Shown here piece after piece: positions 6,947 through 16,712 of a stretch of 21,144 nt of DNA (the first letter of the stretch is position 1; the number at the start of each line of letters is the position of its first letter). The position numbers and the translations under genes were made by a program. Location: positions 1 to 21,144 of the forward strand of contig JAHJQL010000051.1 of NCBI GenBank assembly GCA_018819065.1, written 5' to 3'. Source of the DNA: Nanobdellota archaeon (GTDB lineage: Archaea; Nanobdellota; Nanobdellia; Woesearchaeales; GCA-2686295). The notes below the pieces were generated by a model. That model searched no databases, had not been told where the DNA came from, and worked only from the letters and a program-made list of their open reading frames with translations.

Positions 6947-7019
6947 AGCCCCGTAGTGTAGCGGCCAATCATCACAGGTTCTGGCCCTGTGGACCACGGT
7001 TCGAATCCGTGCGGGGCTA
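6947..7019 (+). tRNA. tRNA-Gln (anticodon CUG), no encoded CCA, no intron
   Basis: Hand-folded cloverleaf. Acceptor agccccg/cggggct (7 bp). Anticodon stem acagg/cctgt with loop ttCTGgc. T arm cacgg-ttcgaat-ccgtg. D-loop agcggccaa. Discriminator A. A1:U72 as in archaeal tRNA-Gln. Confidence 0.9.
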
Positions 7020-7078
7020 CATTATATTTTAGTGATTTGAGGGGATAATTTTTCTTGTATTATAAAGAAATTGGGCAG
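7006..7078 (+). repeat. 73-bp direct repeat, left copy (tRNA positions 60-73 plus 59 nt downstream); attL-like
   Basis: Identical base for base to 12191-12263 (offset 5185 nt), checked by eye. Confidence 0.9.
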
Positions 7079-7147
7079 AGCCATTATCTCTTTTGTTACA
7101 TTTGCGGACAACAATCTATTTTCACGTCTATAATTCGTTGGTTCGTC

Positions 7148-7160
7148 TCCGGGTGGCATA
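7148..7160 (+). repeat. Degenerate tRNA-3'-end-like core (tccgggtggcata), preceded by a T-loop-like ggttcgtc
   Basis: Lies inside the 89-nt segment present after the left 73-bp repeat but absent after the right one. The match is weak. Confidence 0.3.
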
Positions 7161-7167
7161 AAATCGA

Positions 7168-7180
7168 AACATTTATATAT
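7168..7180 (+). promoter_or_regulatory. TATA-type promoter element aacatttatatat of the VapBC module
   Basis: The identical 13-mer also occurs at 12275-12287. It sits 46 nt before the vapB ATG here and 43 nt before the AbrB-type antitoxin ATG there. Confidence 0.5.
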
Positions 7181-7225
7181 TTACACGTATTCAACGTATT
7201 ATACATAATACACGTAGGTAATACT

Positions 7226-7447
7226 ATGGTTAGTATAACTTTATCTGTGCCTAAAGAGTTGAAGAGTGAAATGGATTTGCATCCTGAGATGAATTGGTCA
7301 GAGATAGCACGACAAGCAATCAGAAGCAAAATAAGCATTCTAAAAAGGATGGATGCATTAGTAGCTAATAGTAAACTTACTGAGAAAGATGCTTTAGAAA
7401 TCGGTAGAAAAGTAAACAGATCTTTAGCGAAAAGATTTGGTGCATAA
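7226..7447 (+). CDS. vapB: Ribbon-helix-helix (CopG/VapB-type) antitoxin
   Basis: 73 aa. The start MVSITLSVPKELKSEMD....NWSEIARQAIR is a typical archaeal RHH antitoxin N-terminus. The stop abuts the PIN gene ATG (taaATG). The track ORF start at 7055 is an artefact of the repeat. Confidence 0.75.
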   Translation: MVSITLSVPKELKSEMDLHPEMNWSEIARQAIRSKISILKRMDALVANSKLTEKDALEIGRKVNRSLAKRFGA

Positions 7448-7858
7448 ATGGATGTAGTTGTAGATGCAAACATTCTAATGTCTGCACTGATTAAAGATAG
7501 TCATACAAGAAAACTCTTAGTTCTAAGCAACAACAATTTCTATACTCCAGAATATGTTTTCGATGAAATTAACAATCATATCGATGAGTTAGAGGAAAAA
7601 TCAGGGATGCCAAAAGAACTTATAAAAGAAGTAATCAGTGAAATAATACATCTAGCAAACGTGCACATAATACCAATAACAGAACTAGAAAAACATTATG
7701 ATAAAGCAAAAAGAATTACCCCAGATAAAGACGACACATACTACTTCGCACTAGCACTAAAGAACAACTGTCCAATATGGTCAAACGATAAAAAATTAAA
7801 AACACAAAACAAGATCACAATATACAATACAACAGAAATAACAGAAAAACACACATAA
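7448..7858 (+). CDS. vapC: PIN-domain ribonuclease toxin (VapC-type)
   Basis: 136 aa. N-terminal VVVDANILMSALI (first acidic residue). Downstream DDTYYFALA and PIWSNDKKL (the last conserved Asp) fit the PIN_3-like layout. Confidence 0.8.
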   Translation: MDVVVDANILMSALIKDSHTRKLLVLSNNNFYTPEYVFDEINNHIDELEEKSGMPKELIKEVISEIIHLANVHIIPITELEKHYDKAKRITPDKDDTYYFALALKNNCPIWSNDKKLKTQNKITIYNTTEITEKHT

Positions 7859-7898
7859 ATATATTTAGGACACATGAATGTCATCAAGACGTATTAAA

Positions 7899-7913
7899 TC
7901 TGGGCGGGGGCTA
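7899..7913 (+). repeat. tRNA-3'-end-like core copy (tctgggcgggggcta)
   Basis: Lies 40 nt after the vapC stop, in the same orientation as the tRNA. Differs from tccgtgcggggcta by 2 substitutions and 1 extra g. Confidence 0.7.
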
Positions 7914-7930
7914 TCCGTATCAATATGACA

Positions 7931-7941
7931 TCCGTGGGCTA
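7931..7941 (+). repeat. Truncated core copy (tccgtgggcta)
   Basis: Matches the tRNA core with an internal 3-nt deletion, 17 nt after the previous copy. Confidence 0.45.
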
Positions 7942-8033
7942 TCGGAATGGCTCACGAATATTATTTCTCTCTCAAAAACTTAGAAATGTGACATTTTAAT
8001 AATTCTACAAAACATACCAAAGTATAGAAGTTT

Positions 8034-8044
8034 GGACAGGGCTA
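8034..8044 (+). repeat. Short core-like motif (ggacagggcta) next to the stop of the Lrp-like gene
   Basis: Positional counterpart of ggggagggcta at 10410-10420. Both close a homologous non-coding spacer of about 120-130 nt. Confidence 0.4.
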
Positions 8045-8049
8045 TCATT

Positions 8050-9000
8050 TTAGAAATATACTAGTTTTATGTATTCTCTGAATGTTATTTCTTCGTAATC
8101 CGTGATTTTGGTGATGTTTTTTATTTCATTCATTATCCTGTTTATCTCTTCTCTTGTGGAAACTTCTATATCTATTTCAAAGTCGTTTTGGGATATTGTG
8201 AAATCAATATATGTTATGAAAGGATTGTATTTGGCAAATTCTATTAATTCTCTTATTTTGATAGTCTCGCTTAGTACGATATTTATTTTATAATATTTGT
8301 ATCCTATTTTCTCCAGGTTAAGTAATGGTTTGTATCCTACTATTATGTCGTTTTTCTCTAGTTGTTTTATTCTATATGCTATAGTCTTGGCTGGCATGTT
8401 TAATTTTTTGGAAATTTCTAGAACTGATACTCTGGCATTATTAGACATTATCTTTAATATTTTGATGTCGCGTTCATCGAATTGTACTTCTGGTGATCCT
8501 CCCACTATCAGTGATTTTGGTGGTTCTGAATTTTTTTGGTTTTGTACTAAGTAGTTTCTGTCAAAATGTATGACTTTTGTGAATATCGCTATTTGTACCC
8601 TGCCCATATTTTTCTTGAATTTTTCTTTAAAATTATTCCAGAATTCATAAAATTCATAGATGGTTTTTACCCAGCACATTATTGCTAAATCATAGTTTCC
8701 TTCGAGTCTTGATAATACATGTACTTCTGTAAGTGCTATAAGATAATTATGAATTTCAGTGTCAATTTCTTGGTCTGAATTTGCCAATCGCAAATATATC
8801 CTGAAACCAAAATATCCTAATTTGGAATTATCTATTATGGTATAATATCCTTTTATGTATCCTGTATCTTCTAATTTCTTTAATCTATATTGTGCAGTAT
8901 TTTGGTTTATTCTTAATTTTTTGGCAAGATGAGATACTGGTATTCTTCCATTTTTATCTAATTCGAGAAGCATCTTTTTATCAGTCAAATCAAGATTCAT
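8050..9000 (-). CDS. Tandem-repeat Lrp/AsnC-family transcriptional regulator
   Basis: 316 aa with two wHTH units (DKKMLLELDKNGRIPVSHLAKKLRINQNTAQYRLKKLEDTGYIKGY and RDIKILKIMSNNARVSVLEISKKLNMPAKTIAYRIKQLEKNDIIVGY). Each unit is followed by an RAM-like beta-alpha segment. Confidence 0.75.
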   Translation of the reverse strand: MNLDLTDKKMLLELDKNGRIPVSHLAKKLRINQNTAQYRLKKLEDTGYIKGYYTIIDNSKLGYFGFRIYLRLANSDQEIDTEIHNYLIALTEVHVLSRLEGNYDLAIMCWVKTIYEFYEFWNNFKEKFKKNMGRVQIAIFTKVIHFDRNYLVQNQKNSEPPKSLIVGGSPEVQFDERDIKILKIMSNNARVSVLEISKKLNMPAKTIAYRIKQLEKNDIIVGYKPLLNLEKIGYKYYKINIVLSETIKIRELIEFAKYNPFITYIDFTISQNDFEIDIEVSTREEINRIMNEIKNITKITDYEEITFREYIKLVYF

Positions 9001-9144
9001 ATTGTTATAAAGATTATCTTATTTATAAAGGTTATGCTAATATAACAAATATTATGTAGAAAAGTTAATATAGTTTGTGTACGTTACTCTTTATTAGTAA
9101 TAAAACATATCATCGTTGTATGATGTTTTACTGGAGATGAAAAA

Positions 9145-9915
9145 ATGGTTTCTGCGGAATACACAGAGTTTGAAGATGTACAGAAAAAAAATAATTATAC
9201 TGATATCCAACTTGAAAAAATAGTCCTTCAACTACGAGAAGTTGTTGATGGTGACATAAGAAACTATAATGAAGGAACAAGAAGATTGATAGTTATGAGA
9301 AATTACGATGAAATAAAGTCTAAGGAAGAGTATCTTTCTAAACATGCTATATTAAAATGGATGTTTTTAGAGAAAAAGATGCAGTCTAAACACAAAGAAA
9401 TATATTCTTTTAATCAACATAGTTCTAACTATTCTGAGTTAGTGGATATAATCTGGAAAATATACGATGTGACAAAACAGAACGTAGTATCTGGAGAGAG
9501 CATATTAGATCTTAGAAAGAACTTTGAAGAAGTATATGAATCAAAACGGAATAATTTGGCGCTGGATCATGTAAGTAATTATTTGTTTCAATATCCGGAA
9601 TATGCCAAGGCAGAATTCGAAGCTCTAACTAAAAAAATAAGAAGCGAAGATGGCTCCTACGGAATATATATTGGGAAATTTTATGATTATGGAAAGTATT
9701 ATCCTGCATTGACAGAACAACTAATGAAAGAATTAGGCTCAATGTATAATAGGACATCAGAATCGGATAGAAAACGTATCTTGTCTGCAGCTACACTTGG
9801 TTTTGTGGCTAATTTTGATTCCATATGTGAATTTCGCGTTGAGCAATTAGGCGATAATTTTAACTGGACAAAAGATAAATCTTGTGCATACGCAGGTATA
9901 ATTTGTGAGGATTGA
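9145..9915 (+). CDS. Hypothetical protein (orphan, 256 aa)
   Basis: ATG with ggaga 7 nt upstream, divergent from the Lrp-like gene. No motif I recognise. Confidence 0.6.
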   Translation: MVSAEYTEFEDVQKKNNYTDIQLEKIVLQLREVVDGDIRNYNEGTRRLIVMRNYDEIKSKEEYLSKHAILKWMFLEKKMQSKHKEIYSFNQHSSNYSELVDIIWKIYDVTKQNVVSGESILDLRKNFEEVYESKRNNLALDHVSNYLFQYPEYAKAEFEALTKKIRSEDGSYGIYIGKFYDYGKYYPALTEQLMKELGSMYNRTSESDRKRILSAATLGFVANFDSICEFRVEQLGDNFNWTKDKSCAYAGIICED

Positions 9916-9919
9916 CTAA

Positions 9920-10195
9920 ATGAAGCGTCAAGTTGTTCATAACATTCATGAGGATTACTCATTATGGAAGAAGTTGATTGAGTTAGATTATTATCTTTTA
10001 GGTTTGGCTGATGATGTTTTTGTTTCTCCTGTTAAGTATTATTTTAGTTCGCATGGTTTTGGAATAATCCTGTCAAGAAATGTGTTGATAGTTTCAGGAA
10101 GTACAAAGGATAAAGTCAGAAACGAAGTCCAGAGATTAGATAAGAAGATTCGACTCAATCAAAAGAAGCTACTTCAATGCGTAAGCATGCACTAA
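9920..10195 (+). CDS. Hypothetical protein (orphan, 91 aa)
   Basis: ATG 4 nt after the upstream stop, with gagg 9 nt upstream, so it looks operonic with 9145-9915. Confidence 0.5.
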   Translation: MKRQVVHNIHEDYSLWKKLIELDYYLLGLADDVFVSPVKYYFSSHGFGIILSRNVLIVSGSTKDKVRNEVQRLDKKIRLNQKKLLQCVSMH

Positions 10196-10265
10196 TATTC
10201 GTAGCTCTGGCTAGATTTCTATAATTTGTATGATATTCTCCGAGCTAAATTTATATATGATGACG

Positions 10266-10279
10266 TCCGGGCGGGGCTA
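10266..10279 (+). repeat. tRNA-3'-end-like core copy (tccgggcggggcta, 13/14)
   Basis: Lies 70 nt after the stop of the 91-aa ORF, in direct orientation. Contains the exact 11-mer gggcggggcta. Confidence 0.8.
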
Positions 10280-10409
10280 ATAGTACTAATGTGGTTTTTG
10301 CGGACACTATTTATGCCCGTAAAAAGCCAGTTTTTCTCTCTAAGAAATAATTTCTAGAAATTTGTATTACAGATGTAATACTTCGAAATACATCAAAAGT
10401 AATGAGTTC

Positions 10410-10420
10410 GGGGAGGGCTA
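10410..10420 (+). repeat. Short core-like motif (ggggagggcta) overlapping the stop codon of the TrmB-like gene
   Basis: Counterpart of 8034-8044. The cta is the reverse complement of the TAG stop. Confidence 0.4.
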
Positions 10421-11131
10421 GTATTTTGCTGTTTTCCAGATTAATTTAAAGTAGTTTCTATATGATTTAGCAACTTCTTTGTTTTGTATAACTGTTGCTA
10501 TAGGAATTTCACTCCAAACAATTATTGCAATATTATTTTCGTAAACAAATGTTGTTGTAGGAGAGATAAATTCTTCAGGAAGATATTTAAACGTGGAATA
10601 CGCGTATTTTACGCTTTCGGATTTTTTTGCATTTTCTGAAAATATCACGTGTGCAATTATCTTTTTATCCTTCTTGGATTTTTGAAATAATAAATAATCG
10701 TGTTTCATTATATCCAAGAATTTTCCTGAAGAACCATAACATACATATTCTTTAGTTTTTAAAATATCGCAGAGTATGGATTTGATGCCTTTTTTACCTT
10801 CATATATACTTGATGTTTCGGTTTCTTTACTCGACTTGAATCGCATTTCTAGTTCAGGTAATATCTCTTTTGCAATAGTTTCTTGATCTCTTATTATCTC
10901 TAGTAATTTTGTCGGAGAAACTGCTTTGAATACTTTTCTATTGGATTGAAGAACATATGTTACAAGTCCTTTATCTAATAATCTATTGATTGAATCGTAA
11001 ACTGTTGTTCTATTAATTTTAGATTTTTTACTTATTTTTCCTGCATTAGATGCTCCTATATCTAAAAGAGTTACATATACCAATGCTTCGGTTTTATTCA
11101 ATCCTAATTTTTCCAATTTTTCTATACTCAT
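10418..11131 (-). CDS. TrmB-family transcriptional regulator
   Basis: MSIEKLEKLGLNKTEALVYVTLLDIGASNAGKISKKSKINRTTVYDSINRLLDKGLV is the canonical TrmB N-terminal wHTH. I prefer the ATG at 11131 over the GTG at 11140. Confidence 0.8.
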   Translation of the reverse strand: MSIEKLEKLGLNKTEALVYVTLLDIGASNAGKISKKSKINRTTVYDSINRLLDKGLVTYVLQSNRKVFKAVSPTKLLEIIRDQETIAKEILPELEMRFKSSKETETSSIYEGKKGIKSILCDILKTKEYVCYGSSGKFLDIMKHDYLLFQKSKKDKKIIAHVIFSENAKKSESVKYAYSTFKYLPEEFISPTTTFVYENNIAIIVWSEIPIATVIQNKEVAKSYRNYFKLIWKTAKY

Positions 11132-11253
11132 AATACCCACTAATAATGTGTCTTTTTTAAATCTATTGGATTGTTGTTAGTTTACTCACAACATAAATTA
11201 ATATAGTGGAAGAGTATTCACTTATTGAGAGTAATTATTCGGGGAGATTTAAA

Positions 11254-11925
11254 ATGTATCATATTAGAAAAGAAGCAGATCTTAAAAACAATAGAAGGGT
11301 TTTATACGTCGAAGCTCCTTTTGATAAAGCTCTTAAGATAATCAAATTGAGAGGGAGTAATATTATTACTGCGAAACAACTCGCCGATGCGCGTATGCAA
11401 TGCGATGTAAGTCATTCTTTATCAGCAAATGGCGCATATATCTCAGAAGGAATTATAGTTGATCCGTATCCAAAACACCCTAACATACTTCTAAGAGAAT
11501 CTTTAATTTTGAATAATCCACATAATGCCACAGAGTCGCATCGAAAAATTAGGAATTATAATTATTATCATGAGTCTTACGTTGTTCCTTCTACTATTGA
11601 AAGTGTATTAAATGGTTTGATCGAGGATAAAGACTATATTTTTCTTGACGATAGAATCGGAGACCATGTTATTTCCTATACTGAATTTTTTGAACACAGT
11701 AAATTAATGAATTTTTTGTTTGGTAAATCTGCTAAAGCGTACGGGATTTGGTTAAAAGAAGAAGGAAAAATCTCAAAAGTCAATATTTATAATATTACAT
11801 GTGCAAGAAGATCAGAAATAACTGCGGATCAGCTTTGGTTTAATAGACTAACAGAGAATAGTTTCTTTGGAGGAGGAAGATATCTTAATCATAGTAATAG
11901 AGTTCGTTGGATAGATACAAAATAG
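11254..11925 (+). CDS. Hypothetical protein, member of the island paralog family (C-terminal LWFNRL...GGGRYLNHSNRVRWI)
   Basis: The ATG at 11254 is preceded by ggggag 7 nt upstream (the track ORF starts at GTG 11206). Distantly collinear with 13043-13858. Confidence 0.6.
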   Translation: MYHIRKEADLKNNRRVLYVEAPFDKALKIIKLRGSNIITAKQLADARMQCDVSHSLSANGAYISEGIIVDPYPKHPNILLRESLILNNPHNATESHRKIRNYNYYHESYVVPSTIESVLNGLIEDKDYIFLDDRIGDHVISYTEFFEHSKLMNFLFGKSAKAYGIWLKEEGKISKVNIYNITCARRSEITADQLWFNRLTENSFFGGGRYLNHSNRVRWIDTK

Positions 11926-12033
11926 AAAAATCGAAGAAGATATATTGTAATATTTTAGCTTTGTCTCGATTTCAATCATAACTGTATTACAAACTCCAAG
12001 ATAATTATATTAGCAATGATAGTAAAGGATTGT

Positions 12034-12171
12034 ATGGATGAATTTGAGGCTATAATGCAAGAAAAAGAACGACTATTAAGAAAATACCACTGCAAGACAA
12101 TAAATGAAGTAATACGAATTCTACAGCTAATTCTAGCCGAAAACAATAAAAAAGCCGAAAGTCCTATGTAA
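12034..12171 (+). CDS. Possible 45-aa small protein (MDEFEAIMQEKERLLRKYHCKTINEVIRILQLILAENNKKAESPM)
   Basis: Not in the ORF track because it is short; an alternative ATG lies at 12016. Its 3' end is conserved with a decayed copy at 14320-14361. The stop is exactly 19 nt before the core repeat in both places. Confidence 0.35.
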   Translation: MDEFEAIMQEKERLLRKYHCKTINEVIRILQLILAENNKKAESPM

Positions 12172-12190
12172 GTCATATCTCCTATAGATG

Positions 12191-12263
12191 TCCGTGCGGG
12201 GCTACATTATATTTTAGTGATTTGAGGGGATAATTTTTCTTGTATTATAAAGAAATTGGGCAG
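12191..12263 (+). repeat. 73-bp direct repeat, right copy; attR-like
   Basis: Identical to 7006-7078. Upstream of it there is no T-arm or other remaining tRNA sequence. Confidence 0.9.
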
Positions 12264-12274
12264 GCTAAAACCAT

Positions 12275-12287
12275 AACATTTATATAT
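12275..12287 (+). promoter_or_regulatory. TATA-type promoter element aacatttatatat of the AbrB-RelE module
   Basis: Identical 13-mer to 7168-7180. Confidence 0.5.
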
Positions 12288-12329
12288 ACGACGTGTTTTA
12301 ATATTAAAATATATTGTAGGTGGTGCTTT

Positions 12330-12605
12330 ATGGAAGTCTCTATAACTAAAATGTCTGAAAATGGTCAAGTCGTAATACCTGCTGAAGTAAGGAAAGATGC
12401 AGGGATAGGTCCATCAACAAAATTCATCGTATTTAATCATGATGGAAACATTATGTTAAAACAGATGAAAAAAGAATCTTTAGTGAAGGATATGGAATTA
12501 ATAGATAAGATTAATCGTAGTGAAACTCAAATAAGTAGTGGCAAAGTGGTTAAAGCAAATACCAAGATGAAAAATGAAGAAATAGATGACCTTCTAATGG
12601 GATAA
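12330..12605 (+). CDS. AbrB/SpoVT (MazE-like) domain antitoxin
   Basis: 91 aa. ITKMSENGQVVIPAEVRKDAGI is a swapped-hairpin AbrB motif. aggtggtg lies upstream of the ATG. The stop is 1 nt before the toxin ATG. Confidence 0.75.
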   Translation: MEVSITKMSENGQVVIPAEVRKDAGIGPSTKFIVFNHDGNIMLKQMKKESLVKDMELIDKINRSETQISSGKVVKANTKMKNEEIDDLLMG

Positions 12606-12606
12606 A

Positions 12607-12852
12607 ATGGAAATTATTTTTTCTGAAGAATTCAAGAATGAGTTCAAGAAGATAAAGGATAAAACTACAAGAATAAAAATTATCAAACATATAAAAAAAT
12701 TAGAACAATTGCCAGAATCAGGAAAACCGTTAAAACATAATCTAAAGAATCATAGAACCACAAGAATTCCTCCATTCAGATTAATATATAGAATTGAAGG
12801 AGATAAAATAATAATAAACTGTTTTGACCACAGAAAGGATGTATACGAATAA
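12607..12852 (+). CDS. RelE/ParE-superfamily toxin
   Basis: 81 aa. The ...GKPLKHNLKNHRTTRIPPFRLIYRIEGDKIIINCFDHRKDVYE tail is typical of RelE/StbE-type toxins (R..YRI.....I.I....HR.D.Y). Confidence 0.75.
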   Translation: MEIIFSEEFKNEFKKIKDKTTRIKIIKHIKKLEQLPESGKPLKHNLKNHRTTRIPPFRLIYRIEGDKIIINCFDHRKDVYE

Positions 12853-12867
12853 TTGTCAAGGATGGTA

Positions 12868-12881
12868 TCCGGGCGGGGCTA
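12868..12881 (+). repeat. tRNA-3'-end-like core copy (tccgggcggggcta, 13/14)
   Basis: Lies 15 nt after the relE-like stop and is identical to the copy at 10266-10279. Confidence 0.8.
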
Positions 12882-13042
12882 TTATGCGTGTTCTAGATTA
12901 TCGTATGAGTGTATTTGTTCGTATAGGCTCATGTGTTTCTTGTTTTGGTGTGTGTTTTTATATTCATAACGAAAAACAAATGTTTTGTTACTAAATAGTG
13001 GTTAAATAATCGTAAAATTTATAAATAGAACACTCTTTATGC

Positions 13043-13858
13043 ATGAAAAAAGAGTTAAAACTCACCATAACGGAGGAAAATAAAATTAGCTTACAATTAA
13101 ACAATCCAGTTGCTGTTTACAAGGAATTTTATGGCAAGAACATAGATAAGATGCCTGAGCTTATAGCTTCAGGTTTTACGCCAATGACTTTTGCTGACGT
13201 GATGAAGCGCAGACTAGAAGTCTTAGGAGGCAACAAAGATGTGGCAGATGCGTGGTGGGATAATTATTTTGACACTGTCAATATTGTTGCTTATCATCCT
13301 GATGGCAGGATAAAAATAGTTCTTGACTCACAATTAGCCAAGGAAATTAATCCAAAAAGTACTGTAAGAAATGGTTCAATTGTTCTTCCAAACACTGACG
13401 CATATGAACAACTTGCAGGACAAGAATTTACACAAAAGGAAATTGAAAAGTATGCCAAATCAGAATCATTAACGCTTAAACAAGCACTAAGCAATCCAAT
13501 ATGGGCTGCATTAGCAAATGATCCAAAACTTCATGAAGAATATGCAAAAGCAACATTCAAAGAAGCCAAAGAAAAATACGGGTTCAATAATAATCTAGGC
13601 GTTTATTTGTCAGGATTCAAAGAAGTTCCTAATTTTAGGCTTTGGTTGTCGAGCAGGCTCAACTACAACTCGGATGCTGATGGTAGCAATTCTCTTGACT
13701 ACAACTATGGGCGTCTGGTCGGGGTAGCGCCGGAGGCGCACGGCGCCGAAAAAATAGCTATGCCGACACTAGAGCAGATTATGAATATCAGTTCAAAATA
13801 TGTTGCTCCAGTTAATGTTGATGCATTAAGAAAAGACCTAAAAGGCATCTACAAATAA
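13043..13858 (+). CDS. Hypothetical protein, member of the island paralog family (C-terminal RLWLSSRLNYN...NYGRLVGV)
   Basis: 271 aa. tttataaata lies about 20 nt upstream, so the transcript is probably leaderless. Paralogous to 11254-11925 and to the relic at 13944-14149. Confidence 0.65.
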   Translation: MKKELKLTITEENKISLQLNNPVAVYKEFYGKNIDKMPELIASGFTPMTFADVMKRRLEVLGGNKDVADAWWDNYFDTVNIVAYHPDGRIKIVLDSQLAKEINPKSTVRNGSIVLPNTDAYEQLAGQEFTQKEIEKYAKSESLTLKQALSNPIWAALANDPKLHEEYAKATFKEAKEKYGFNNNLGVYLSGFKEVPNFRLWLSSRLNYNSDADGSNSLDYNYGRLVGVAPEAHGAEKIAMPTLEQIMNISSKYVAPVNVDALRKDLKGIYK

Positions 13859-13907
13859 TTCTTTTTTTCAATAATTTTTTATATTAACTATTCTTTACTT
13901 ATTATTG

Positions 13908-13917
13908 TCCCGGCTTA
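13908..13917 (+). repeat. Possible badly eroded core (tcccggctta)
   Basis: Lies 50 nt after the stop of 13043-13858, where a block boundary would be expected. The match is weak. Confidence 0.2.
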
Positions 13918-13943
13918 GTGCATTACTGCAAAAAGTGCACATC

Positions 13944-14149
13944 AGATAGCTGAGATCTACACGCCATTTCACTATGGCAAGCATTTGCAGTGCCTGCTAT
14001 AAAATACAACCACGACAGAAATGAAGTGGTGGTGAAAACTATTAGGTGAAATGGCTACTCGAGGGGATTTGGTTGCTTGGCAGGCTCAACAACAACTTCA
14101 ATGCCAATGGCAACAACAACGTTGACAACAACAATGGGCGTCTTGTCGG
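13944..14149 (+). pseudogene. Decayed, internally deleted paralog of 13043-13858
   Basis: Nucleotide collinearity with the intact gene: atagct-N9-acgcca, and gtggtgg(t)gaaaactatt versus gtggtgggataattatt. The segment tttggttg..ggcaggctcaac.acaact..aatgc..atgg...atgggcgtct.gtcgg also aligns. The relic has in-frame TAA and TGA stops, a +1 frameshift and about 340 nt missing. Track ORF 14046-14255 is its 3' remnant. Confidence 0.6.
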
Positions 14150-14380
14150 AATAGATCTGCTATTTACCGGGACACTTAAAATCTTAGTAGAGCCAAATCT
14201 TTATGTCGGAAGGGATATGGCTTCCATGCAAGATTTTGGCTCCAATATTGGCTAAAAACGCAAGATTCTGCACTTCCTGGCTCCATTCTGGGTCTACTCG
14301 ACGAGAGCCACGACTAAAGAATAATTTAGAAAACCGCAAAAACGCCGACAGTCCCACATGACTCAGTTTTCGGGTTGACC

Positions 14381-14394
14381 GCTGGGCGGGGCTA
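14381..14394 (+). repeat. Distal tRNA-3'-end-like core copy (gctgggcggggcta, 11/14)
   Basis: Last copy in the window. It contains the exact 11-mer gggcggggcta, and I take it as the outer island boundary. Confidence 0.7.
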
Positions 14395-14436
14395 TATTTT
14401 CTTTTTCGTAACATGGGAAGGAATTCTTTTCTTTTT

Positions 14437-15519
14437 CTAAGCACTTAATGTGTTTCCTTTTGTGTTCTGATGATTGCTATTAAGTCCGTCAGAACCATAA
14501 CTTCTTGCTGCGTCTGAAGAAAACAAGTAGATAAGTCCTAAAGCAAAAGGCTCTCCTTTCTTAATAACATAATCTCCCCACATATATGGATGCGCAGTTA
14601 AATTGCCTTTAAAGCCGGAATCGCCCCAGCCAGCTTTTAGTCTTTGATTGAATTGCATCTTGAACATTTCTTCAAAATTAAAAGAAGATTTCATTTTGTA
14701 TGGAATACTTCTAAGAAGCAATATGCCCATGTTTTTAGGAATCTCAATATATGGGTCAAGCTTAACGACGTGATGCACATTTTGTTTTAAAATATATTCT
14801 TTGTCTAATTCATTTTTTTCAAAGACTTCATCAATAGAATATTTCATTCGCATATCAATTGTGCCAAAATTTTGTTTAGGTTTCAGGACTAAATCAGAAA
14901 CTTTGAATAAGACGTAACTCTCTAGAGTTTTTAGTTTTGGACTAATTATTCTTGCTGCATTTTTGACATCTTCAGGATTGTTAAGCACAACGCCCGAGCC
15001 ATAATCTTCTGCATAAAAAAATATTTGTGCAAACCTGTCTCTTGAGTGTAGCCTTATAGAATTAGGGTTGCTATTTGTTACATGTACAAATTGTCCATTT
15101 TCATCACTAAAAATTATTGGGCTTGTAGATATTAAACCATACTTTCCATGACCGCTCCTCAACTCAACACCCATCATGAATTCTGTTTTTATCTGTTCGT
15201 GTAAGTATATTTGTGCGTTGCAGCCAGGCATTATATCTATGTGTTGATTGTTGTTGTCTTCAAATATTTTTGTAGGCTCATAATTTTTTCCAAGTACAAG
15301 AACGCCACCTGTTTTTTTAGCCATTTCAGATGGATCAAAATATTTTACAGTTCCTATTCTCACGTCTAATGTATTTGGCTGAAACTGAACATCCTCTATT
15401 TCTTTATCAAATAATATTTTATTTTCTAATATTGCATTTCTAATATTAGTATCATTCAGAATATTATAATTCATAAAAATATGATGTTTGCTAAGTTCCA
15501 GTCCATTCAGTTTAATCAT
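14437..15519 (-). CDS. Tandem-domain dCTP deaminase/dUTPase-fold protein (long DCD-family-like)
   Basis: 360 aa. ILNDTNIRNAI..NKILFD....VQFQPNTLDVRIG is the dCTP-deaminase N-terminal pattern. There are two beta-barrel halves; the second has AGWGDSGFKGNLT (DPGF.G..T-like) and the C-terminal SYGSDG....HQNTKGNTLS tail. Confidence 0.65.
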   Translation of the reverse strand: MIKLNGLELSKHHIFMNYNILNDTNIRNAILENKILFDKEIEDVQFQPNTLDVRIGTVKYFDPSEMAKKTGGVLVLGKNYEPTKIFEDNNNQHIDIMPGCNAQIYLHEQIKTEFMMGVELRSGHGKYGLISTSPIIFSDENGQFVHVTNSNPNSIRLHSRDRFAQIFFYAEDYGSGVVLNNPEDVKNAARIISPKLKTLESYVLFKVSDLVLKPKQNFGTIDMRMKYSIDEVFEKNELDKEYILKQNVHHVVKLDPYIEIPKNMGILLLRSIPYKMKSSFNFEEMFKMQFNQRLKAGWGDSGFKGNLTAHPYMWGDYVIKKGEPFALGLIYLFSSDAARSYGSDGLNSNHQNTKGNTLSA

Positions 15520-15555: not shown

Positions 15556-16551
15556 TTATTCTAATCTTTTTACTGCCTGCGCGTATATTTCTGCTCCGTA
15601 CTTTGCTTCTTGTATTGTGAAATACGTGTTTCCGATGTCATAGGAGCCTGCTTCTTTTGTTTTCCGCAATCTTGTTATTATGGTTTCTATTGCCATGTTT
15701 TCTTTTATTAGGACATTTACTGCTTTGTCTACATCCTCGTCTGTCGTCGTTTTAGTTTTCAGCAGTGCCTTGTTTCTCTTAACGCCTAGTTTGTGGCAGG
15801 TCCATTCATATGTTTTTTTGAGTTCGTATAATCCTCTGTTTAGAGCGTTATATCTGTAAGATGGGTTGTCTTCTTTTTCGCTCCACACTTTGGAGATATG
15901 TCTTTCAACACCCCTGCTTATTCCTTCTGAGAACGACTCATATGATGTTCCATATGTGTTTACAGTTGCTTGCAGTATTCCTTTCTTGCTTAGTATGTGA
16001 TGAGTGTATTCGTGTGCTGAGATGACTATGTTGTTTGTTTTGTTTGCGTCTTTTTTTGATAGGTCGATTGTTTCTTCCAATGGTGAATATGTGCTTATGT
16101 TGTACTCTTCTTTGTGATACTCTATTATTCCTTTTGCTATCATCGTTCCTGCTATTGTTCCAAATATAGCTATAGGGTTAAAGTTTGTGATGGCGTAATA
16201 TGCTGCAGGTGTTAATATTGATGCTAATGCTGCATAAACTCCTGCGTATTTGAGGTTTGTTTTTCTGAATTGAAATATGTTGTAATAGCCTATCTCTGGT
16301 GATTCTATGTTTTGTACTTGTAAGAATTCATCTACTTCTTTTTTTATATCGACAAAAGTTTTTTGAAGCTCTTTGTTTTTTAGTTTTTTTCCAAAGTTCA
16401 GCTTTCCTTCTTCGTTGAGTCTTTTTAGTTTTTTGTATTCTTCAATCTCTTTGTTTAGTATCTCTTCGAGTATTGGGATGTTTTCCTTTTTTAGGACTTC
16501 TGATTTTAGCTTGCAGTCTTCAATTTGTTCGAGTGTTTCTTGATTTATCAT
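15556..16551 (-). CDS. Membrane-associated MA-clan (gluzincin-like) HExxH metallopeptidase-domain protein
   Basis: HEYTHH followed 24 residues later by SFSEGIS (HExxH...E, Peptidase_MA-like). N-terminal coiled coil plus hydrophobic segments (YAGVYAALASILTPAAYYAI, IAIFGTIAGTMIAKGII). I prefer the ATG at 16551 because a tttatatat TATA sits at about 16594-16602 on the minus strand (the track start is TTG 16593). Confidence 0.6.
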   Translation of the reverse strand: MINQETLEQIEDCKLKSEVLKKENIPILEEILNKEIEEYKKLKRLNEEGKLNFGKKLKNKELQKTFVDIKKEVDEFLQVQNIESPEIGYYNIFQFRKTNLKYAGVYAALASILTPAAYYAITNFNPIAIFGTIAGTMIAKGIIEYHKEEYNISTYSPLEETIDLSKKDANKTNNIVISAHEYTHHILSKKGILQATVNTYGTSYESFSEGISRGVERHISKVWSEKEDNPSYRYNALNRGLYELKKTYEWTCHKLGVKRNKALLKTKTTTDEDVDKAVNVLIKENMAIETIITRLRKTKEAGSYDIGNTYFTIQEAKYGAEIYAQAVKRLE

Positions 16552-16712
16552 TGTGTAAAAAAACTCTTTTTTGTTTGGTGTTTGTCTATTCAATATATAA
16601 ACCTTTTGTTTTTTAACTACTTATTAGTGGTTATTTAATTAGAATTGGTGTTTTTGAAACTATCAAAATACTGTTTACACAACATTAATTACTTAGAAAG
16701 CAATATTTATCT

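Follow-up and report, generated by a model that had tools for sequence, protein, structure and literature searches.

A 21,144-nt stretch of archaeal DNA (Nanobdellota archaeon, contig JAHJQL010000051.1 of assembly GCA_018819065.1; the whole stretch is called the window here) contains, between positions 11254 and 14149, three segments that share a C-terminal protein motif, and they raise the question of what kind of system they belong to. A sequence-only reading had taken them for three copies of an uncharacterised paralog family, two of them intact and one decayed. We find that they very probably represent a diversity-generating retroelement (DGR) of the DPANN or 'Nanoarchaeota' type that has been partly dismantled. 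In DGRs, a dedicated reverse transcriptase (RT) copies a non-coding template RNA and misreads only its adenines. The mutagenised cDNA, guided by the initiation of mutagenic homing (IMH) sequence and a nearby hairpin, replaces a variable repeat (VR) at the 3′ end of a target gene, and the ligand-binding face of a C-type-lectin-fold protein is thereby rewritten. The mechanism to which the locus belongs is a known one, that of DPANN-type DGRs with AvpA-like targets. Particular to this locus are its deleted RT, a second target that looks frozen, a fit between template repeats (TRs) and VRs of different loci, the placement of the structured RNA RT-16, and RNA helices that enclose the TR.

The 271-residue target and its template cassette

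Two of the three segments are intact open reading frames (ORFs) as the sequence-only reading had described them, one at 11206/11254-11925 (239/223 residues) and one at 13043-13858 (271 residues). The third lies downstream of the 271-residue gene, in a segment with the features below; related loci are cited by number, as in L049, an ortholog of the window locus.

13043-13858, plus strand: DGR target gene for an AvpA-like C-type-lectin-fold variable protein of 271 residues (from homologs, an AlphaFold2 model, Foldseek and the TR-VR patterns of orthologous loci)
13638-13727, plus strand: VR of the 271-residue gene, with the IMH-type end GTCGGGGTAG (90-nt match to 14065-14154)
13727-13739, plus strand: hairpin GCGCC-GGA-GGCGC with a GRA trinucleotide loop, just 3′ of the VR and within the gene (read from the sequence)
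13875-13886, plus strand: TATA-box-like TTTTTATATTAA, 21-32 nt upstream of RT-16 (seen by eye, conserved in the L049 ortholog)
13907-14063, plus strand: RT-16 structured RNA (Rfam RF03019), 5′ leader of the template RNA (76.6 bits)
14065-14154, plus strand: TR, non-coding, with the IMH*-type end GTCGGAATAG

The third segment had been described as a relic gene about three-quarters identical to the 271-residue gene. It does reach 74% identity (blastn E 8e-13), but only over the 90 nt that pair 14065-14154 with 13638-13727. Elsewhere in 13859-14460 no alignment to the 271-residue gene exceeded chance, and the two in-frame stops, the frameshift and the internal deletion of about 340 nt that had been read into the third segment are therefore not supported. 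The repeat itself is rich in adenine: 28 of its 90 nt are A, and read in the VR frame it has 11 AAY codons. It ends in GGAAT (IMH*), where the VR ends in GGGGT (IMH), and the GGA-loop hairpin that follows the VR is kept in the paralogous locus L003. RT-16 was recognised at 76.6 bits against a gathering score of 50, over the full model (1-158 of 158); its core helices covary, and its 3′ end falls two bases before the repeat. We conclude that the third copy is a DGR template repeat, not a pseudogene, and that the 271-residue gene is a DGR target. The template cassette thus comprises a possible TATA box, RT-16, the TR with its IMH* and, past the TR, a strand that folds back to pair with the 5′ part of RT-16 and so encloses the TR; TTTTTATATTAA is a possible promoter of the template RNA. 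Annotations of the metagenome-assembled genomes (MAGs) call a 69-residue ORF at 14046-14255, which merely reads across the TR and is almost certainly not a gene. Where these annotations list three unrelated 'hypothetical proteins', the spurious 69-residue ORF among them, one known mechanism can now take their place.

The 271-residue protein has 101 homologs of 150-290 residues, none with a Pfam domain, whose named sources are mostly DPANN archaea; a Pfam search likewise found no domain in either the 271- or the 223/239-residue protein. The AlphaFold2 model of the 271-residue protein reached a predicted local distance difference test score (pLDDT) of 92.8, and Foldseek against the PDB returned a sole significant match, AvpA (5ioo_A; E 1.3e-10, TM-score 0.67 normalised to the target, 20% identity over 225 columns). 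On the model, the VR covers residues 199-228 and lies on strands E197-203, E212-214 and E224-228, and the alignment of VRs in the family places the variable positions inside a fixed RLW..RL..S.A.G...L....GRLVGV scaffold. The model thus predicts an AvpA-type C-type-lectin fold in which the VR forms a surface site near the C-terminus. The sequence-only reading could assign no known domain, a statement that the predicted fold overturns; the structural modelling and Foldseek search that it had recommended led to AvpA (5IOO), and the profile survey of taxonomic spread and context that it had also recommended found the family, where a source is named, mostly in DPANN archaea, with RT-16 and RTs nearby in part of its loci. 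The mechanism directs hypermutation to a surface protein with a lectin fold, here in an archaeon that is ultra-small and probably symbiotic.

AvpA is the variable protein of a Nanoarchaeota DGR, with an internal VR and a helical tail of ~46 residues that holds the hairpin (Handa et al. 2016, PMC5006420). It shares with the window protein the C-type-lectin fold, a similar length (256 against 271 residues), the position of the VR (near residues 180-210 against 199-228) and a fixed beta-5 strand encoded by the IMH, RFxGV in AvpA and RLVGV in the window. The AvpA motifs GxxVVVYAH and HPxxxPFxG were not seen in the consensus of the 271-residue family, to which AvpA was compared without being aligned. 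A sequence search of the PDB with profiles of both target families gave no match below E 0.4 and did not reach AvpA; the window families therefore appear as separate subfamilies, related to AvpA at the level of the fold only.

About half of the loci of the 271-residue family are without RT-16. One of them, L001, carries at 8001-8780 a gene (P0003) whose product is 83% identical to the 271-residue protein and has a TR1-type VR; it lies beside an ABC transporter operon, with no RT-16, TR or RT within 8 kb. Such loci may hold remote targets or non-diversified paralogs.

Related loci and the RNA that encloses the template

A genome scan with the 271-residue family yielded 35 loci, and RT-16 follows the family gene in 14 of them, as it also does in L003/L004. 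The layout of gene, RT-16 and repeat recurs in 16 loci besides the window, with both target families represented. Each repeat that was recovered begins at most a few bases from the 3′ end of RT-16 and matches the C-terminal region of the gene. Of the 16 other loci with RT-16, 14 have a DGR-type RT (YVDD, 365-551 residues) no more than a few kb away; near L042 only a short fragment matched an RT, and near L044 none was found. SCGC AAA011-G17, which Paul et al. (cited below) studied, is the source of L015, a further locus of the 271-residue family.

In most of these loci, mismatches between TR and VR fall largely at adenines of the TR. They do so without exception in L027 (12/12), L017 (13/13), L031 (10/10), L014 (14/14), L037 (13/13) and L042 (14/14), and nearly so in L018 (13/14), L016 (10/11), L030 (18/20) and L019 (19/21). 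The adenine share is thus 86-100% in 10 of the 14 loci with the 271-residue family outside the window lineage. L024 (17/21) and L044 (12/20) are less clean, and from L036 no TR-VR pair was recovered. Two further loci, L009 and L011, have targets of the second family, to which the 223/239-residue protein belongs, and hold complete cassettes in the order integrase, target A, target B (its paralog), RT-16, TR and RT; here 20/21, 19/20, 18/19 and 13/15 mismatches are at TR adenines (87-95%). The RTs linked to the two families differ in size. Those with the 271-residue family have ~550 residues and a C-terminal HTH_40 domain (L003 3311-4966, minus strand), while those with the second family have 365-387 residues and begin right where the TR ends (L009 9900-10997, L011 3391-4554). 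In L049, the TR (2590-2678) is interrupted after GGGGCTTTGGTTGG, where unrelated T-rich sequence takes over close to the end of the contig; either the TR is disrupted or the repeat was assembled wrongly.

These loci also bear on the proposal that all three segments are protein-coding paralogs, the third a decaying pseudogene, and that they diverged under conflict-type positive selection. In its favour, the homology of the two intact proteins is real, several tRNA-like junctions lie in what is a mobile island, and the 69-residue ORF can be read across the third copy. Yet the homology of the third copy is confined to the equivalent of the 90-nt VR, its upstream flank is a conserved structured RNA (by the RT-16 score) and not degraded coding sequence, its AAY-rich composition and GGAAT end are traits of a DGR template, and the layout is found again in the 16 loci, with an RT near 14 of them and adenine-specific mismatches in 10 of 14 as well as in both second-family loci. 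We consider the proposal highly improbable. What stands of the three-copy family is the C-terminal motif and the homology of the two intact proteins, the third copy being the template; likewise, the earlier picture of duplication, fast divergence and decay was right about a mobile, tRNA-linked island and a C-terminal hot spot, but the mechanism is that of a DGR.

The DUSEL4 Nanoarchaeota DGRs, with the wider set of DGRs from DPANN and CPR, are among the closest known systems. In the DUSEL4 DGRs, an IMH ending in GGGGT is paired with an IMH* ending in GGAAT, and a GRA-loop hairpin lies inside the target gene (Paul et al. 2015, Nat Commun 6:6585, PMC4372165). The window resembles them in host group, in an orphan target gene whose VR is internal and has ~45 residues of tail behind it, in the types of IMH and IMH*, in the in-gene GRA hairpin and in the presence of several DGR loci per genome. 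It differs from them in that its cassette is without an RT, of which 16 codons are left, and in that its own TR fits the VR less well than the TR type of another locus does. In the passages of Paul et al. returned by term searches, neither an RT-16-like RNA upstream of the TR nor helices enclosing the TR were found.

In most loci, RT-16 has at its 5′ end a strand that can pair with a segment lying 12-16 nt past the TR, and the pairing covaries. In the window, the corresponding elements are as follows.

13906-13913, pairing with 14167-14174: outer helix (minimum-free-energy folds, covariation)
13953-13959, pairing with 14152-14158: inner helix (RNAalifold consensus, covariation)
14152-14174, plus strand: 3′ strands of these two long-range helices, which close the RNA of RT-16 and TR

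Pairs of outer-helix strands from different loci include GTCCCGG/CCGGGAC, GTCCCAGC/GCTGGGAC, GTCCTAGC/GCTAGGAC, ATCCCAGCA/TGCTGGGAT, GTTCCAGT/ACTGGAAC and GTCTCT/AGAGAC, and in the minimum-free-energy folds of 8/8 loci the outer helix closes the unit of RT-16 and TR. The inner helix was recovered independently by RNAalifold and joins a strand just 5′ of the CUACACGC core to bases that overlap or follow the IMH*. In a 13-sequence alignment, compensatory changes occur at 6 of the 10 pairs of the outer helix and at 8 of the 9 pairs of the inner one. Paired cells make up 92.8%, a share that falls to 28-46% if the partners are displaced by 1-3 columns. These column-wise covariation counts were used because a permutation of outer-helix strands across loci was not a clean control, many loci sharing the helix sequence. 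The helices are also seen in L003, L009, L011, L014, L016-L019, L027, L030, L031 and L037. Both lie outside the Rfam RT-16 model and compete with the 5′ hairpin annotated in it. Since both are present in the window, the template unit of ~13906-14174 is intact.

The RNA of the Bordetella phage BPP-1 DGR offers a close comparison. There, the template must be flanked by structured RNA, and an upstream-downstream duplex named 'cPRT Stop' brackets the TR (Handa et al. 2018 NAR; bioRxiv 10.1101/2023.10.23.563531); a survey whose host groups included Nanoarchaeota predicted similar duplexes in 207 DGRs (Handa et al., bioRxiv 10.1101/2023.10.23.563531). The two covarying helices of the window resemble this duplex. 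By contrast, the upstream duplex strand of BPP-1 directly adjoins the TR, whereas the window has its large structured element (RT-16, ~157 nt) upstream of the TR, not downstream as in BPP-1, and only ~20 nt after it. Covariation thus shows a template enclosed by pairing between RT-16 and the 3′ flank of the TR, an arrangement that can be compared with the model of cis-priming and termination in the Bordetella phage. The RT-1 to RT-19 motifs were described as being 'near RT genes', with a role in DGRs proposed explicitly for RT-10 only (Weinberg et al. 2017, PMC5737381). In keeping with that description, the RT-16 of the window is a full-length match above the gathering score and the motif adjoins RT genes in related loci; going beyond it, we place RT-16 as the 5′ leader of a DPANN DGR template, with pairing to the 3′ flank of the TR that extends past the Rfam model. 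An orphan Rfam motif thereby gains a concrete place.

The lost reverse transcriptase, the second target and the match of templates to targets

What remains of an RT in the window is a single feature, upstream of the 271-residue gene.

12885-12932, minus strand: remnant of a DGR RT, its first 16 codons (MSLYEQIHSYDNLEHA) followed by stop codons (tblastn)

The remnant is 75% identical to residues 1-16 of the L049 RT (tblastn E 0.005), with MSLYEQIHSYDNLEHA and two stop codons in the window where L049 reads MSTYEQIHTYDNLDLAYHRARK. At the DNA level, 12883-13065 is homologous to L049 1415-1594, a segment that covers the start of the RT and the divergent intergenic region, and the homology ends exactly at 12883-12885. 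L049 has the order RT (minus strand), target and RT-16, the RT being transcribed divergently from just upstream of the target; its target is 80% identical to the 271-residue protein, and its RT-16 matches that of the window at 147 of 157 positions. Because the RT homology stops where a tRNA-like fragment (12861-12884) begins, we conclude that the cis-encoded RT was removed by the type of recombination that built the island. The cassette's own RT, expected to be divergent and upstream of the 271-residue gene as in L049, is gone, and its remnant ends at a tRNA-like recombination junction.

An intact RT of 551 residues (RVT_1, YVDD) is encoded at L003, on another contig of the MAG GCA_018828865.1, which also carries the window locus. 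This enzyme is ~66% identical to the RT of L049, the ortholog of the lost enzyme, and the RT-16 of L003 is 78% identical to that of the window. No obvious small gene neighbours the L003 RT, which has a C-terminal HTH_40 domain instead; in the window, no Avd gene was identified, with no search aimed at Avd. As the cis RT is gone, any present activity must use the RT of another locus in trans, or else the cassette is inactive.

The 223/239-residue gene to the left of this junction is a candidate second target.

11254-11925, plus strand: predicted second AvpA-like variable-protein gene, of the other subfamily; 223 residues from M17
11206-11925, plus strand: 239-residue version, from an upstream GTG
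11831-11913, plus strand: apparent fossil VR of this gene

The first homologs of its product were five proteins of 265-270 residues, and a profile search of 1.8 billion representative proteins returned 622 relatives. The homologs begin at M17 and extend ~45 residues past the end of the window copy. Compared with the 271-residue protein, it gave no significant BLASTP match (E 0.97) and, with a profile of 6 sequences, a weak one (E 0.0025, probability 12%); a 49-sequence alignment of its family, set against the 271-residue family with hhalign, reached a probability of 93.6% (E 2.1e-7, ~190 columns). The two intact proteins are thus remote homologs. Their relatedness, which the sequence-only reading had wished to see checked by profile search, became convincing only with the deeper profiles, and the upstream collinearity that it had noted, for example of ITAKQLADARMQ with MTFADVMKRRLE, lies inside the deep hhalign alignment. 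This alignment to the 271-residue family, taken with relatives that are DGR targets, suggests that the 223/239-residue protein is AvpA-like.

The window copy ends in RVRWIDTK and a stop codon directly after the VR. Against the TRs of its family, the VR has 32-33 mismatches, 18-19 of them at non-adenine positions, and a codon deletion; the gene has no GGGGTG IMH and no hairpin, and no matching TR was found in the window. With its homing signals and tail lost, its VR would be frozen, and the gene looks like a fossilised target. The end of the gene (...CGTTGGATAGATAC) is closer to the IMH*-type end of the window TR (..GGAATAGATCT) than to the IMH of its own family (GTGGGGTG), with a likeness of ~9/11 nt between the regions 11900-11925 and 14145-14160 and a break at the homing site. 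The break may be the trace of an aberrant homing event, or chance. In this way the locus documents the decay of a DGR, with the RT lost at a tRNA-like junction and the target beside it frozen once its homing signals had gone.

Which template, then, wrote the VR of the 271-residue gene? Set against its own TR, this VR has 23 mismatches, 11 at adenines and 12 at other positions. The L003 cassette (in the order RT of 551 residues, target P0005 of 55% identity, RT-16, TR) is similar in this respect, its own TR-VR pair having 10 of 22 mismatches at adenines. When the pairs are crossed, the window VR differs from the L003 TR at 10 adenines and 3 other positions, with one codon indel, and from the L017-type TR2, which is near-identical to the L003 TR, at 12 adenines and 1 other position without a gap; the L003 VR differs from the window TR at 7 adenines and 3-4 other positions. 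All diagnostic non-adenine sites sort crosswise (GCTTGG vs GTCGAR, GTTGAC vs CTTGAC, CTTGTC vs CTGGTC). As the target of L017, a sister of L003, was written from its own TR2 (13/13), the swap is specific to the organism of the window. We infer that the window VR was last written from a TR of the L003 type, the L003 VR in turn fitting the window TR.

Several observations weigh against the DGR reading of the window, or against its present activity. No intact RT was found in the 21-kb window by Pfam or tblastn; an AlphaFold2 model of the 239-residue protein from 6 sequences had a pLDDT of 33 and no usable fold; and more than half of the mismatches in the window's own TR-VR pair, as just seen, are at positions other than adenine. 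The cross-locus fit is itself imperfect, given the 3 non-adenine changes and the codon indel between L003 TR and window VR, and ordinary recombination between the two paralogous VRs could have produced it; moreover, the placement of the window and L003 contigs in one genome rests on MAG binning. No VR variants occur in public assemblies, where the 90%-identity cluster of the 271-residue protein is a single sequence, and with consensus assemblies only, current diversification is unproven. Four contigs from different samples and assemblies (L005-L008) are 100% identical to the window over 5-18 kb, but they were retrieved for encoding exactly the 271-residue protein, so that the comparison of VRs is biased; the only variant of the paralog differs outside the VR. 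As the public assemblies derive from one clonal population, the absence of variants is weak evidence.

The DGR might accordingly be a dead remnant, in which TR, RT-16 and VR have drifted since the RT was deleted and the crosswise fit reflects recombination or gene conversion between paralogous targets, not retrohoming in trans. An RT cut to 16 codons, the 12 non-adenine mismatches of the cassette's own pair, the lack of variants in any public assembly and the clearly fossilised neighbour all point this way, and near-identical flanks of the two VRs would support recombination. It is less easily squared with a cassette that keeps all of its RNA and DNA signals (a full-scoring RT-16, closing helices of 8 and 7 bp, IMH*, 11 AAY codons, IMH, hairpin and ORF), or with the presence, in a MAG that contains the window locus too, of a paralogous RT (66%) and an RT-16 of 78% identity; the missing variants, coming from one clonal population, weigh little. 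On this evidence a dead remnant could as easily be the right answer as the wrong one.

Alternatively, the DGR may be active in trans. The RT of L003 would serve the window cassette, if it is active at all, by copying both template RNAs, and either cDNA could home into either VR because the targets share IMH and flanks. The intact cassette, the crosswise fit at all diagnostic non-adenine sites and the L017 case, in which the same target was written from its own TR2, are what such activity would leave behind. Against it stand the absence of observed variants, the 3-4 non-adenine mismatches and one codon indel that remain in the crossed pairs, and the identity of only ~66% between the RTs of the two loci, with cross-recognition of their RT-16 RNAs unproven. 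We regard activity in trans as a genuine possibility, albeit a doubtful one. More tentative still, and in our judgement rather unlikely, is a cross-wired DGR network of one RT, two templates and at least two targets, whose templates would write into each other's targets because these share homing signals. As a corollary of such a network, the RNA that organises priming in these archaeal DGRs would lie upstream of the template, as RT-16, and be clamped to the 3′ flank of the TR by two helices, the reverse of the Bordetella-phage layout. In any case, the locus raises the possibility that templates and targets are used across loci.

Host and mobile island

The window is archaeal, as judged by ribosomal protein L10e, TrmB- and Lrp-type regulators and ~33% GC. 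Identical to it are contig JAHJPC010000128.1 of the MAG GCA_018819945.1, one contig of the Nanoarchaeota MAG GCA_018828865.1 and two Logan assemblies. The island around the DGR includes the following.

7227-7447 and 7448-7858: toxin-antitoxin pair, ribbon-helix-helix (RHH) and PIN
10259-10282, 12861-12884 (plus strand) and 14374-14397: tRNA-3′-end-like fragments (TCCGGGCGGGGCTA), repeat family D3
12330-12605 and 12607-12852: toxin-antitoxin pair, MazE/AbrB-type and ParE/RelE-type, left of the RT-remnant junction
14437-15519, minus strand: dCTP-deaminase/dUTPase-like protein of 360 residues with a long extra C-terminal region
15556-16593, minus strand: protein of 345 residues with an HExxH motif and no Pfam match, beyond the dCTP-deaminase-like gene

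Positions 7006-7078 and 12191-12263 form a perfect 73-nt direct repeat, the first 15 nt of which are the 3′ end of a tRNA-Gln gene (6947-7020). The pair looks like the attL and attR of an integrated element of 5.2 kb. Its cargo consists of the RHH/PIN toxin-antitoxin pair, Lrp-type and TrmB-type regulators, two ORFs of no assigned function and the 223/239-residue gene. No integrase is present in the window, and the integrases of L009 and L011, used as tblastn queries, had no match in it. The tRNA-like fragments split 7020-14397 into cassette-like segments. The fragment at 12861-12884 aligns with the 3′ end of the tRNA-Gln and directly adjoins the RT remnant, and that at 14374-14397 is where the island ends, ahead of the dCTP-deaminase-like gene. 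Both toxin-antitoxin pairs sit behind the same repeat-derived leader, from which an ORF start MYYKEIGQ results. Finally, a C/D-box snoRNA model of Rfam matched 14463-14519 (plus strand), although below threshold (16 bits, E 0.45). This segment, antisense to the 3′ end of the dCTP-deaminase-like gene, contains C-box-like (UGAUGA) and D-box-like (CUGA) elements and may be an archaeal C/D sRNA, or a chance match.

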